In this document: positions 3-3,707 of the stretch, in pieces | How positions within the stretch are numbered: position 1 is the first letter of the stretch | Layout of the letters: every line of letters starts with the position of its first letter | Virus record (IMG/VR): IMGVR_UViG_3300037961_006825 | Location: 10,205-74,204 of that record | Reading direction: 5' to 3' (one strand) | Length of the DNA: 64,000 nt | Source: a virus | Made by a program: the position numbers and the translations under genes | The notes under the pieces: model-generated | Told to the model about the DNA's origin: nothing | The model's input: only the letters and a program-made list of their open reading frames with translations | Databases searched by the model: none

Positions 3-755
3 GCAAATAACGAGATTTACTTAGAACAGGAAGGTACAACAGGTACTTTTAATATTACTCAAATCGGTTCATCAAATAGAATCGGTCAATCAACTGACAT
101 TTCAACAATTAAAGGTAATGATAGTATCTTTAATTTATCTCAATTAGGTAATAGTAATGCATTAGACATCAATTGGGATGGTAAAGAAACTACTTTTGAT
201 CTTTATATTGAAGGTGATGGTAATACACAAGACTTAGTAGTTACAGGGGATGGTAATGATTTTGATAATGTTATTTTAGGTAATAATAACTCTTTAACAG
301 TTTCAAAAGACCCAACTTCTGACGATGCTTCAAGTATTTCAGATCAAACATTTAATAATTATATTATTGGTGATAGTAACTCTTTAGATTTTTATCTTGA
401 TTCGAATGTTAATGCTGTAGTTGATATTACAATTGCAGGTAGTAGTAATGATTTAACATCAATTCAAGAAGGTGGTAACTTAGGAGTAGGTCATTCACAA
501 ACACTTGAATTACAAGGTAGTGGTAATACAGTAGAGTTAGTACAAAGTGGTTCAGAATCTCAAACATTAGAATTAACTCACTACGGTCATGACACAACAT
601 TTACAATTATTCAATCAGATGGAACGTATACAGCTGGTTTAGAAGGTGCTAATGTAATAAGTAATTTTGATGGAAGTTATTCAGCAGTTTATGCACAACC
701 TGGTTTCTTACTTGGCTCAGTACCTGAAGCAACAGCCGGTGCTGACGGTAACTAA
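3..755 (+). CDS. Curlin-repeat (CsgA/CsgB-like) beta-solenoid protein, 5'-truncated by window edge; missing from ORF track
   Basis: Frame 3 is open from base 3 to TAA at 753-755: ANNEIYLEQEGTTGTFNITQIGSSNRIG...LSQLGNSNALDI...IEGDGNTQDL...LQGSGNTVELVQSG. Repeated x-Q/E-x-G-x-x-N curlin-like units. Confidence 0.75.
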   Translation, partial: ANNEIYLEQEGTTGTFNITQIGSSNRIGQSTDISTIKGNDSIFNLSQLGNSNALDINWDGKETTFDLYIEGDGNTQDLVVTGDGNDFDNVILGNNNSLTVSKDPTSDDASSISDQTFNNYIIGDSNSLDFYLDSNVNAVVDITIAGSSNDLTSIQEGGNLGVGHSQTLELQGSGNTVELVQSGSESQTLELTHYGHDTTFTIIQSDGTYTAGLEGANVISNFDGSYSAVYAQPGFLLGSVPEATAGADGN

Positions 756-1668
756 ATCTTTAATTTTATTTTTCTTCATTTGTTTAACCTCTTCTGCTGC
801 TGGTTCAGTTGGAGAGGTTTTCCATCAAACAAGACAAGCTCAAATTACTAGAGGAGCAGATAAAATTTTAACTGAAGTAGGTACTGAAGTTGAAATGGGT
901 GATAAAATAGAAACATTAAAAGGTAGTATCACTATAGTATTCGTTGATAAAACTGAGGTAACTATATCAGAATATTCAAAACTTATAATAGATGAATTTG
1001 TATATGATGCTAATAGTAATAAAGGAAAAATTAATTTAAAAGCAGGTTTAGGTAAATTAAAATATACTTCAGGTATAATGGCTAATAAAGAAAATATTAG
1101 AATAACGACTCCTACTGCATCAGTTTCTGTTAGAGGTACTGATTTTGAAACTACTGTAAATGAAGCTGGCTCAAGTACTTTTACATTACTACCTTCAATA
1201 GCTGCTGATGGGTCAACGTATGTTGGAGTTATTGAAGTTTTTAATGCAACCGGTGCTGTTGTATTAGATACTGCTTTCGAAGTAACTACTGTATCATCAT
1301 CTTATACACCACCTACTCCTCCAGTAATTAACAGAGCAAGATTAAATGAAGCTATAGAAAAAAGAGATAATCAAAATGAAGAAATAAATGAAACCGAATC
1401 AGTAGATGATGAAGAATTAGATTTAGATAGTGAAAAAGACGCTTTAGATGAATCTTTAATACAGTTAATGGAAGAAGATAATTCAAATGGATTATTTTAT
1501 GAAGAAGATGACAAAGCAATATTTGAATCTGTAGATGGAGAGAATAAAGTTAAATTAATAGTAGATAAAGATTCAAATGTCTCACTAAAATATGATAATA
1601 AAGGAGTTATAACTGAAGGTAATCACAACAGTGGTGGTAACGTAATTATAAATATTATACAACAATGA
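739..1668 (+). CDS. FecR-domain secreted/periplasmic protein
   Basis: GD-x-I-x-T, F-x-D-x-T, TPTASVSVRGTDF FecR motifs. Start re-called at GTG 739, which gives a signal peptide (VLTVTKSLILFFFICLTSSA) overlapping the curlin stop. Confidence 0.85.
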   Translation: MLTVTKSLILFFFICLTSSAAGSVGEVFHQTRQAQITRGADKILTEVGTEVEMGDKIETLKGSITIVFVDKTEVTISEYSKLIIDEFVYDANSNKGKINLKAGLGKLKYTSGIMANKENIRITTPTASVSVRGTDFETTVNEAGSSTFTLLPSIAADGSTYVGVIEVFNATGAVVLDTAFEVTTVSSSYTPPTPPVINRARLNEAIEKRDNQNEEINETESVDDEELDLDSEKDALDESLIQLMEEDNSNGLFYEEDDKAIFESVDGENKVKLIVDKDSNVSLKYDNKGVITEGNHNSGGNVIINIIQQ

Positions 1669-3707
1669 AGTTAAAAAAACTAAAACCATTTTTATGGTGT
1701 ATGTTTATTGCATTAATATTTTCTGCAATAAGAATATACGATCCATACCCGGTAGAAATAATTAGACTTAAAGGTTTAGATTTTTATCAAAGGCAACAAG
1801 AAGCAAAAATATCTCAAGAAATTAGTATTGTAGAAATAGATGAAGCAAGTTTAGAGCAATATGGTCAGTGGCCTTGGAAAAGAGATATTTTATCTAATGG
1901 TATAATAAAAGCATTTGAAAATAATGCAGCTTTAGTAGTATTACCAATATTATTTGCTGAAGAAGATAGACTAGGTGGTGATGAATTTTTTATACAAACA
2001 ATACAAAATTATCCTGTAGTTACTTCGCAATCAGCTTCATTGAAAGGTAAGGGTAAAGTAGTACCAAGAGGTATATCTACTATTGGTACGGGGTTATATA
2101 ATTGGTTATATGACTATCCAGCAGGTATAGGACCGTTAGATAGTATAGGTAAATATTCAGCAGGGGTAGGTATGCTTTTAACAGCTCCAGAGTTAGATGG
2201 CGTTGTGAGAAGGCTACCTTTACTTATACAAATTAATGGAGAACCTTACCCTACAATACCTTTAGAAGTTTTACGATTATTCGGAGGTGAACAATCTTAT
2301 CAGGTAAAAGTTGATGAAATGGGAATAAATAAAGTTAGAGTATTAGGTGTAAATACTATTGATACTGACCAACATTCTCGAGTTTGGATAAACTTTAATA
2401 ATGAATTTAATAAAATATCATTCATAGATAATGATTGGACAAGTTTAGAAAATAAGATTGTTGTAATTGCTTTAACAGCTGAAGGATTATCTAACTCAGT
2501 TGCAACACCAATTAAGGTTAGCAATGGTCATGAATTAAATATGCAGGTTTTACAAATGTTAATTGACGGCAATACTTTAAATAGACCAGTTGACGCAACT
2601 ATAAATGAAGTTCTTATAACTTTAGGTATAAGTTTAATTTTAACTTTAGGTGCATTATTTTTATTATATTATATAAATGTATTTTTATTACTTATTACAG
2701 TAATTTTATTACCTTATACAGGGTTTTACCTCTTTAATAACTATAATTTACTTTACGACTATACATATCCTTTATATTCAACATTTATAATTTTTACAAT
2801 AGCTATTTTCTTTAGATTTATTCATGAATTTAAAGGTAGAATGTTAATAAAAAAACAATTTGAACATTATCTTGCCCCTGAAATAGTTAAAAAACTTCAA
2901 AAGAATCCTGATATGTTAAAATTAGGAGGTGATACACAGGACTTAACTATTTTATTTTCTGATATCAGAGGGTTTACTACTATAAGTGAGCAATTCAAAG
3001 ATAATCCACAAGGATTAACTGATTTAATTAATAGATATCTTACACCTATGACTCAAATAGTTATGGAATCAGGCGGTACTATTGACAAGTATATTGGAGA
3101 TGCTTTAATGGCGTTTTGGAATGCACCTATACCAGAAGATAAGACGTCACATAGAATAAAAGCTATAGAAGTTGCAATAAAAATGCAATCTGAGTTGGAA
3201 AAACTTAATATACAATTAGTAGAAGAAGGTAAAAAGGAACTTGCAATAGGTATTGGTATTAATACTGGAACAGTTGTGGTAGGTAATATGGGATCTGATC
3301 AAAGATTTGATTATACTTGCTTAGGAGATGCTGTAAATTTATCAGCTAGACTTGAAGGGCAAACTAAATCATATGGCGTGGGTATATTATTAGGTGAAGA
3401 AACTATAAAACATATTGAAGATAAATTTAAATTTATTGAGTTAGATAAAATTGCAGTGAAGGGTAAAAAAGAAGGTAAATATGTATATACAGTTTTAGAT
3501 AAATTTAACCATACTTTACATAATGCATTTTTAGAGTACTATAAGAATAGAAAATGGAAACAAGCTTTATTGACAATAGAGAAGATTTTTGATAAAGGTA
3601 CACAGCTTGAGTTTTACTATAAAGAAATGGAAAAAAGAGTTGTTGATTTAGCTAAAAATGATCCAGGTGAAGATTGGGATCAAGTATATAGATTAAAGAC
3701 AAAATGA
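1665..3707 (+). CDS. CHASE2-domain transmembrane class III adenylate cyclase
   Basis: CHASE2 (IDEASLEQYGQWPWKR, DGVVRRLPL), about 3 TM helices, cyclase motifs FSDIRGFT, DKYIGDA, YTCLGDAVNLSARLE intact. Confidence 0.93.
   Translation: MKLKKLKPFLWCMFIALIFSAIRIYDPYPVEIIRLKGLDFYQRQQEAKISQEISIVEIDEASLEQYGQWPWKRDILSNGIIKAFENNAALVVLPILFAEEDRLGGDEFFIQTIQNYPVVTSQSASLKGKGKVVPRGISTIGTGLYNWLYDYPAGIGPLDSIGKYSAGVGMLLTAPELDGVVRRLPLLIQINGEPYPTIPLEVLRLFGGEQSYQVKVDEMGINKVRVLGVNTIDTDQHSRVWINFNNEFNKISFIDNDWTSLENKIVVIALTAEGLSNSVATPIKVSNGHELNMQVLQMLIDGNTLNRPVDATINEVLITLGISLILTLGALFLLYYINVFLLLITVILLPYTGFYLFNNYNLLYDYTYPLYSTFIIFTIAIFFRFIHEFKGRMLIKKQFEHYLAPEIVKKLQKNPDMLKLGGDTQDLTILFSDIRGFTTISEQFKDNPQGLTDLINRYLTPMTQIVMESGGTIDKYIGDALMAFWNAPIPEDKTSHRIKAIEVAIKMQSELEKLNIQLVEEGKKELAIGIGINTGTVVVGNMGSDQRFDYTCLGDAVNLSARLEGQTKSYGVGILLGEETIKHIEDKFKFIELDKIAVKGKKEGKYVYTVLDKFNHTLHNAFLEYYKNRKWKQALLTIEKIFDKGTQLEFYYKEMEKRVVDLAKNDPGEDWDQVYRLKTK

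Follow-up and report, generated by a model that had tools for sequence, protein, structure and literature searches.

Does a phage that carries a curli apparatus also encode the means of reading the state of that apparatus inside the infected cell? The question is raised by a 64,000-nucleotide stretch of viral DNA (IMG/VR record IMGVR_UViG_3300037961_006825, positions 10,205 to 74,204; hereafter the window) that opens with genes for a curlin, a FecR-domain protein and a class III adenylate cyclase bearing a CHASE2 sensor domain. An earlier note, made from the sequence alone, had read these three genes as a possible surface-to-cyclic AMP (cAMP) signalling module. Here, we report that they are the downstream end of one compact operon of seven genes, and that this operon is a compact member of the viral curli or type VIII secretion system (T8SS) region already published for phages of SAR11 and OM43. 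What is new is the view of FecR and the CHASE2 cyclase as a sensor that takes the curli apparatus as its input, possibly with FecR as a tether.

Curli genes of marine T4-like phages, which the earlier note had mentioned, are the subject of three studies (PMC7029224, PMC9004378, PMC9599517). Zaragoza-Solas 2020 (PMC7029224) and Buchholz 2022 (PMC9004378) described a "curli operon" from which csgA and csgB were considered missing, and mention neither FecR, CHASE2 nor the cyclase. Wittmers 2022 (PMC9599517) reported the T8SS genes, FecR, a second CsgA/B, the adenylate cyclase (AC) and upstream "HK" (histidine kinase) genes in podo- and myo-pelagiphages, found the block to be expressed and to occur at all 65 GOV2.0 stations, and interpreted FecR as an iron regulator, with CHASE2 unmentioned. 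All tested features of this T8SS region are present in our contig, including the one or two small leading genes; the optional second curlin is absent.

FecR and the CHASE2 cyclase are the invariant core of a seven-gene operon

The contig spans 74 kb at ~30% G+C, and a further 10 kb of it precedes the window. Directly upstream of the curlin gene lie the two genes that the earlier note proposed to look for, encoding the lipoprotein CsgG (1.3e-46) and CsgF (2.5e-15). Together with two small leading genes, TM1 and TM2, they give the order TM1-TM2-CsgF-CsgG-curlin-FecR-AC, in which neighbouring genes either overlap or are separated by at most 17 nt. The unit is bounded by a strong terminator and a minus-strand gene before TM1, and by genes on the opposite strand after the cyclase. 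The overlaps described earlier for the three window genes were recovered, the FecR start lying within the curlin gene and the FecR and cyclase genes sharing 4 nt (ATGA). All parts of the operon are intact and under purifying selection.

TM1 and TM2 are small paralogous proteins with a single N-terminal transmembrane (TM) segment and a coiled-coil-like tail, and both belong to phrog_18771, a family with no function assigned. The "histidine kinase, sometimes two" of Wittmers 2022 probably corresponds to this pair; a kinase domain is absent from both, and their size is far below that of kinases.

To establish which genes travel together, we counted families in the 24 viral loci with at least 6 kb of upstream and 4 kb of downstream flank; in total, the cyclase has relatives on at least 597 IMG/VR contigs. 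FecR was present in 23 of the 24 loci, CsgF/CsgG in 20, a curlin in 18 and TM1/TM2 in 16-17. In phages, FecR and the CHASE2 cyclase form the invariant core of the module, and in bacteria the two genes recur as a pair. TM1 and TM2 also belong to the module, and their place in it varies: they precede CsgF, follow the cyclase on the other strand, or share its strand and are directly coupled to it (L061, L066). In one locus (L021) the whole gene set is circularly permuted. The five closest relatives (L005-L009, 56-70% identity) have the same compact form as the window, with no second curlin gene. A megablast search of window positions 1-8000 against deposited phages returned zero matches; relatives are therefore detectable at the protein level only.

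Two groups of loci depart from this arrangement. In the first (L064, L065, L078, L082, L083, L084, L045, L057, L058, L062, L067 and L073), FecR is long (714-797 aa), its extra half has no Pfam match, and the cyclase is shorter, at ~540 aa; in the six loci named first, FecR-curlin-CsgG-CsgF is divergent from the cyclase. In the second, giant proteins of 1234-1471 aa are encoded ~3.5 kb upstream of the CHASE2 cyclase (L054 125-4537, L056 492-4421, L072 709-4410). They begin with a FecR domain followed by cadherin domains, and those of L054 and L072 also carry RTX/serralysin-C repeats. No CsgFG was detected in these three loci, which have the layout of a type I secretion system (T1SS) adhesin in place of a curli apparatus.

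The first gene of the window encodes a CsgA-family curlin

The full curlin gene starts at contig position 10153, 51 nt ahead of the window, and its 268-aa product carries a Sec-type signal peptide. The window curlin was matched neither by Pfam Curlin_rpt (PF07012), even at E<=10, nor by any PHROG family. Curlin_rpt does match the positional homologues in Methylophilales phage Melnitz (8.6e-6, 1.9e-4) and Pelagibacter phage HTVC008M (5.2e-8), and BLASTP linked the window curlin to the annotated curlin-repeat proteins of both (Melnitz, 2e-17; HTVC008M, 3e-15). The term "unannotated" used earlier for this gene had to be dropped, as its homologues carry annotation in the deposited HTVC008M and Melnitz genomes.

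Furthermore, 27 viral homologues were made into a profile headed by the window curlin; searched against 177,635 PDB sequences, it retrieved curli subunits only, namely 8c50 (1e-17, five repeat stretches) and E. coli CsgA 8enq (1.5e-4). The AlphaFold2 (AF2) model of the curlin (mean predicted local distance difference test, pLDDT, 81.5; predicted template modelling score, pTM, 0.76) is a strand-turn-strand stack of ~17 regular short strands. Its best structural match among 48,161 representative chains was CsgA of Pontibacter (8c50, Z 18.6, 194 aa, root-mean-square deviation [rmsd] 8.8 A), and E. coli CsgA 8enq was superposed at Z 12.2 over 111/111 residues. A Foldseek search of the model against the PDB gave nothing significant, with weak beta-helix matches only; CsgA surfaced through the search that is independent of Foldseek. 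Because BLASTP homology, the match of the family profile to curli in the PDB and the fold of the AF2 model all agree, we consider the identity of ORF 3-755 settled: by homology and predicted fold, it is a true CsgA-family beta-solenoid, as the earlier note had supposed.

Two curlins have additional parts. In the window (620-755) and in L005-L009, the curlin continues for ~45 disordered residues beyond the usual ...FTIIQSD end; curlins outside this clade end at the terminal motif. The second curlin of HTVC008M (L002 6667-7992, annotated as a hypothetical protein) combines a PA14 domain (2.7e-6) with Curlin_rpt (5.2e-8). PA14 is a typical carbohydrate-binding or adhesin module.

The identity of the curlin bears on the proposal of Buchholz et al. 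2022 that CsgG and CsgF are a gated pore or a pinholin that times lysis; the curlins would then not be fibre subunits and the cyclase would be a passenger. Structural modelling of the Melnitz CsgGF and the lack of clumping on infection (PMC9004378) agree with such a role, and a TATAAATA box precedes the operon. However, the proposal assumed that csgA and csgB were missing (PMC9004378), and the curlins analysed here are homologous to solved CsgA in sequence and in fold. Moreover, 18 of the 20 CsgG-bearing loci have a detectable curlin as well, and FecR and the cyclase are linked more tightly to each other than the pore is to either. We thus regard a lysis pore as quite improbable.

The FecR protein has an exported layout with a possibly curlin-like end

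The most likely start of the FecR gene is GTG 739, with ATG 691 and ATG 670 as alternatives, so that it overlaps the curlin gene, whose stop lies at 755, by 17-89 nt. We place the start inside the end of the curlin gene because the hydrophobic signal sequence is translatable only from there. This agrees with the signal-peptide FecR protein of the earlier note, which the Pfam match (Table 1) likewise bears out. The AF2 model (pLDDT 75) consists of a signal helix, a beta domain, a helix followed by a disordered linker, and a C-terminal strand unit.

Residues 52-201 superpose on the cell-surface signalling domain of PupR (6ovk_R) with Z 15.1 and an rmsd of 2.4 A over 128 aa, and the N-terminal domain also matches 4m0n (Z 14.0). 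In addition, residues 21-115 align with 5ix9 (MpIBP), the template used for the LapA retention module (Z 7.1, 73/76 residues, rmsd 2.3 A, Foldseek probability 1.00), this Z lying in the range of common arrangements and the significance of the match being borderline. An alignment of 21 homologues and the AF2 model agree that the protein lacks the cytoplasmic N-terminal anti-sigma domain and the TM helix of FecR regulators, the signal peptide running straight into the beta domain.

The linker is modelled with very low confidence (pLDDT 27-43 for residues 211-250), and a linker of 50-81 aa with a net charge of -4 to -22 is found in 19 of 21 homologues. The protein ends in a phi-x-phi-x-Q motif (I-x-I-x-Q). 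Within 0-3 residues of the C-terminus, this motif occurs in 42 of 46 complete viral FecR proteins and in 26 of 53 curlins, compared with 7 of 617 background ORFs, 0 of 34 CsgG and 1 of 84 cyclases. HHalign aligned the tail of FecR with the final two repeats of the curlins, the two ending together (E 1.4e-3, and 3e-4 with a probability of 40%; control, 0.26). A search of the FecR-tail profile against PDB sequences returned nothing significant, CsgA appearing only at E 7.1. Because of this null result, the curlin-like nature of the C-terminal unit is suggestive only; it rests on the motif statistics and on HHalign. It suggests a physical link between FecR and the fibre.

The cyclase combines a periplasmic CHASE2 domain with an ATP-type active site

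Hydropathy analysis of the cyclase predicted a TM segment at residues 6-25, the periplasmic CHASE2 domain, three TM segments in the hydrophobic block 311-387 (311-359 and 368-387) and a cytoplasmic cyclase domain. The latter aligns best to CyaB of P. aeruginosa (3r5g, E 1.8e-36), with the motifs in register. The intact active site described in the earlier note was recovered in full: D433 and D479 bind the metal, K475 and T551 specify ATP, and N558 and R562 stabilize the transition state. Among 10 viral homologues of 34-56% identity, D433, K475, D479 and R562 are invariant, N558 is nearly so, and position 551 is Thr or Ser. The CHASE2 domain is constrained as well, as D39, G67, Q68, P70, R73, D101, R102 and D106 are invariant across the viral homologues. 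Domain and motif assignments thus identify a cyclase with a predicted periplasmic CHASE2 sensor and an ATP-type active site.

Such an enzyme could simply serve host takeover by flooding the cell with cAMP or draining its ATP, constitutively, with CHASE2 as a mere anchor and the neighbouring genes unrelated. Contig L027, which has the cyclase without FecR or curli genes, would fit this explanation, as would the lack of a cyclic-nucleotide receptor among five phage genomes. However, a mere anchor accords poorly with CHASE2 motif residues that stay invariant at 34-56% identity, and unrelated neighbours accord poorly with the linkage of FecR to the cyclase in 23 of 24 loci and with the ATGA translational coupling of the two genes. 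We therefore find a constitutive takeover enzyme highly improbable.

In bacteria, the same pair occurs without curli genes

We found full-length relatives of the CHASE2 cyclase in 588 bacterial loci, at 28-36% identity. CsgG, CsgF and curlin were found near the cyclase in 0 of the 80 bacterial loci examined. The commonest upstream neighbour was FecR (21 of 60 loci by Pfam), and an iterated profile placed FecR within 1.6 kb in 25 of 51 well-flanked loci, usually directly upstream and on the same strand. These counts, together with published loci (PMC5192318, PMC5498481), bear out the co-occurrence of FecR and CHASE2 on which the earlier note had relied.

The bacterial FecR proteins are themselves joined to surface modules. 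Fusions to TbpB/fHbp-type barrels and to RTX repeats were found, and in Ensifer and Mesorhizobium a FecR-TPR protein is fused to a ~600-aa C-terminal half that groups with TonB-receptor-like barrels, an assignment that is a lead only. In three Elusimicrobiota loci and in Hoeflea, a separate Slam-like or TPR-bearing protein lies beside FecR. Because FecR in bacteria comes with outer-membrane or surface modules and, in the loci examined, without curli genes, FecR and CHASE2 look like a pre-existing envelope sensor pair that pelagiphages have joined to a curli apparatus.

Other features of these loci were recorded. In Hoeflea (L128 4047-5435), the FecR-domain protein has collagen triple-helix repeats and is encoded beside the Slam-like TPR/barrel protein, divergent from the CHASE2 cyclase. 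Downstream of the cyclase in bacterial loci L085-L164, alanine racemase was commonest (9 of 69); a class II cAMP phosphodiesterase was found in 3 loci and cNMP-binding proteins in 2.

The bacterial neighbours also bear on the published interpretation of FecR as an iron regulator of the ferric-citrate type, which would control the viral T8SS, with the cyclase acting through a CsgD-like transcriptional route. This interpretation draws on the name of the Pfam family, on the discussion in Wittmers 2022 (PMC9599517) and on the iron limitation of the surface ocean. However, the phage FecR has neither the cytoplasmic anti-sigma domain nor the TM helix, and gene-by-gene family searches found no FecA, FecI, sigma factor or TonB-dependent transducer gene within the operon. 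Furthermore, bacterial CHASE2 cyclases neighbour FecR-domain genes more often than any other family, and iron-uptake genes are absent from their top neighbour families. CsgD, on which the transcriptional route would depend, is absent from these phages (PMC9599517). We thus consider an iron regulator very unlikely.

A model linking the surface fibre to cAMP

We propose that the operon links the state of an exported surface fibre to cAMP through FecR and the CHASE2 cyclase. CsgG and CsgF would form an outer-membrane pore in the infected cell and export the curlin, and FecR, as a periplasmic adaptor, would connect the CHASE2 domain to this outer-membrane or surface assembly. Cyclase activity, and hence the level of cAMP, would then be set by the state of the pore or fibre. 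A parallel may be seen in S. meliloti, where NsrA acts through CyaK and CyaD and where CHASE2 is inhibitory. Of the proposal made earlier, the coupling of an envelope cue to cAMP thus stands as the best-supported interpretation, with an experimental precedent in a bacterium; its novelty as a module does not, the block having been published already, and the unit comprises seven genes rather than three. The benefits proposed with it, namely aggregation, superinfection sensing and rewired host catabolite signalling, are conjectural.

Several observations weigh against this model. The contacts of FecR with CHASE2 and with CsgG or the curlin are deduced by analogy, from gene linkage and from homologues. 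L027 encodes the cyclase and TM1/TM2 but neither FecR nor curli genes within 8 kb, and about half of the bacterial cyclase homologues are without a detectable FecR neighbour. A cNMP_binding domain (PF00027) was not found in G000, in the complete Melnitz and HTVC008M genomes or in two large related contigs. Finally, Buchholz et al. (PMC9004378) saw no clumping during infection by Melnitz. On balance, we judge the link from fibre to cAMP plausible, with the case for it and the case against it about evenly matched.

A more specific version makes FecR a tether that spans the outer membrane. Its N-terminal domain would remain in the periplasm at CHASE2, its acidic linker would thread the CsgG channel, the lumen of CsgGF having been predicted to be positively charged by Buchholz et al. 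(PMC9004378), and its curlin-like C-terminal strands (I-x-I-x-Q) would be built into the fibre or cap it, so that fibre load or occupancy is reported to the cyclase. FecR and CHASE2 would then be a modular envelope-spanning sensor, the FecR partner plugging into different export routes. FecR is found in such different contexts: most pelagiphages combine it with the T8SS, three phage loci fuse it to RTX/cadherin modules of T1SS type, and bacteria join it to Slam-like or TonB-receptor-like barrels. The C-terminal motif common to FecR and curlins points to a specific physical link between sensor and fibre. Nevertheless, we put forward the tether, and the modular sensor with it, as an unlikely refinement.

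The same C-terminal unit could instead serve inside the periplasm. FecR would then be a chaperone or monitor: by binding unsecreted curlin through this unit, it would inform the cyclase of secretion load or of a jam and so provide feedback on fibre export. Its resemblance to curlin repeats would suit this role, and the pelagiphage cassette lacks the periplasmic curli chaperones CsgE and CsgC (PMC9599517). In addition, the FecR domain is a folded beta domain of 160 aa, which is unlikely to pass through the narrow CsgG channel (PMC9004378). Conversely, a long acidic disordered linker would be superfluous for a simple chaperone, and the fusion of FecR, as the N-terminal part, to exported RTX, cadherin and barrel modules in phage loci without detected CsgFG and in some bacteria suggests that the C-terminus lies outside. 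We therefore assign export feedback a low probability.

Coupling of the fibre to cAMP by a FecR-CHASE2 sensor pair with curli as its input is a testable model that would replace the iron-regulator interpretation. SAR11 phages rank with the most abundant viruses on Earth and devote several percent of their genomes to the cassette, through which the host gains an envelope structure that it otherwise lacks.

Features, putative promoters and surroundings of the operon

The coordinates of the features are given in Table 1.

Table 1. Features of the curli-FecR-cyclase operon. Positions refer to the window unless marked "contig".
Feature	Position	Strand	Description
TATAAATA box, identical	contig 8198-8205, before window	+	5 nt upstream of TM1 start
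TM1 and TM2	contig 8211-8492 and 8495-8812, before window		93 and 105 aa; operon head
TATAAATA box, identical	contig 10140-10147, before window	+	5 nt upstream of curlin start
Curlin, CsgA/B-like beta-solenoid subunit	3..755	+	last 250 of 268 codons
FecR-fold exported protein	667..1668	+	ORF from TTG 667; PF04773 1.1e-10; phrog_37870 8e-57
FecR N-terminal all-beta domain	811..1293	+	model residues 25-185, pLDDT ~90
FecR linker	1333..1488	+	model residues ~199-250: helix 199-217, then acidic disordered sequence; net charge -15
FecR C-terminal six-strand beta unit	1495..1665	+	residues 253-308, pLDDT 63-74; ends ...NVIINIIQQ
TATAAATA box, T4-type late-promoter consensus	1647..1654	+	10 nt upstream of cyclase start
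CHASE2-4TM-class III adenylate cyclase	1665..3707	+	680 aa; phrog_35576 1e-191
CHASE2 sensor domain, predicted periplasmic	1725..2651	+	residues 21-329; PF05226 1.3e-37
Class III catalytic domain, predicted cytoplasmic	2934..3479	+	residues 424-605; PF00211 6e-24

All three plus-strand copies of the TATAAATA box immediately precede start codons, which is no more than suggestive of late promoters; their total is not above chance (5 found, 5.3 expected). A scan of the operon for sigma-70 promoters likewise gave no excess, with 35 found and 39.9 expected from shuffling.

The cassette is contained nearly whole in marine metagenomes from two studies. One marine metatranscriptome library (X14) yielded two exact contigs (74-251 and 434-589) at a word depth of ~19-20, both inside the curlin gene; DNA carry-over is possible, and the non-coverage of FecR and the cyclase does not imply that they are silent. 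These contigs hint, if weakly, that the most abundant transcript is that of the curlin.

Just 3' of the cassette (4674-6265), the window encodes two enzymes, a NUDIX hydrolase (4.6e-10) and an Fe/Mn superoxide dismutase that is complete (2.5e-35 and 7.9e-25); two small ORFs with very basic products separate them.

Comparison with known systems

One signalling precedent is in S. meliloti, where the CHASE2 cyclases CyaK, CyaD1 and CyaD2 depend on the outer-membrane barrel NsrA to signal through cAMP and Clr (PMC7529298, PMC13001267). CyaD1 without CHASE2 is constitutive, and the FecR-domain gene smc02177 is numbered beside cyaD1 (PMC5498481). As in the phage cassette, an inner-membrane CHASE2-class III cyclase has a FecR-domain gene nearby, as judged in S. 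meliloti by locus number. In one locus of Ensifer, the gene directly upstream of the cyclase homologue encodes a FecR-TPR protein of 1233 aa whose C-terminal half is barrel-like. In contrast to the phage cassette, the outer-membrane partner in S. meliloti is a beta-barrel and Clr is the known CRP-type receptor; a search of five phage genomes yielded no receptor of this kind.

A second precedent is the BiofilmReg operon of Burkholderia and P. aeruginosa, which encodes a response regulator, a periplasmic LysM-FecR protein and a CHASE2 histidine kinase, and which controls biofilm in Burkholderia (PMC5192318). Here too, one operon pairs an exported FecR protein with a CHASE2 sensor, the FecR gene lying directly upstream, and this operon is associated with a surface or biofilm phenotype. 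The BiofilmReg output differs in being a histidine kinase, and its FecR partner carries LysM, a peptidoglycan-binding domain, and no curlin-like tail.

In its layout, the phage FecR protein may resemble the RTX adhesins LapA and MpIBP (bioRxiv 10.1101/198937; PMC5550230; 5ix9), in which a flexible linker joins a folded N-domain to a C-terminal part that is exported; the FecR-cadherin giants of L054, L056 and L072, two of them with RTX repeats, have exactly this layout. However, the export route in the phage would be CsgG of the T8SS and not a TolC-like T1SS pore, and no LapG- or LapD-type partners are present. With the anti-sigma regulators FecR and PupR, the phage protein shares the fold of the periplasmic domain, which partners an outer-membrane transducer in the solved 6ovk complex. 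This transducer partner is the signalling domain of PupB. Unlike FecR and PupR, the phage protein has no anti-sigma domain or membrane helix, and its operon has no sigma factor or TonB-dependent transducer.

Finally, HTVC008M and Melnitz have a second curlin between FecR and the cyclase, which the window contig and L005-L009 lack; the one curlin of the latter six carries the ~45-aa extension. In all other respects the cassettes correspond. The genes keep the order CsgF-CsgG-curlin-FecR-(curlin)-cyclase and a common strand, and the block lies between the replication module and the structural one; the cyclases of HTVC008M and Melnitz share 38-40% identity with the window cyclase over 88-98% of its length, and CsgF, CsgG, the curlin and FecR are homologous.

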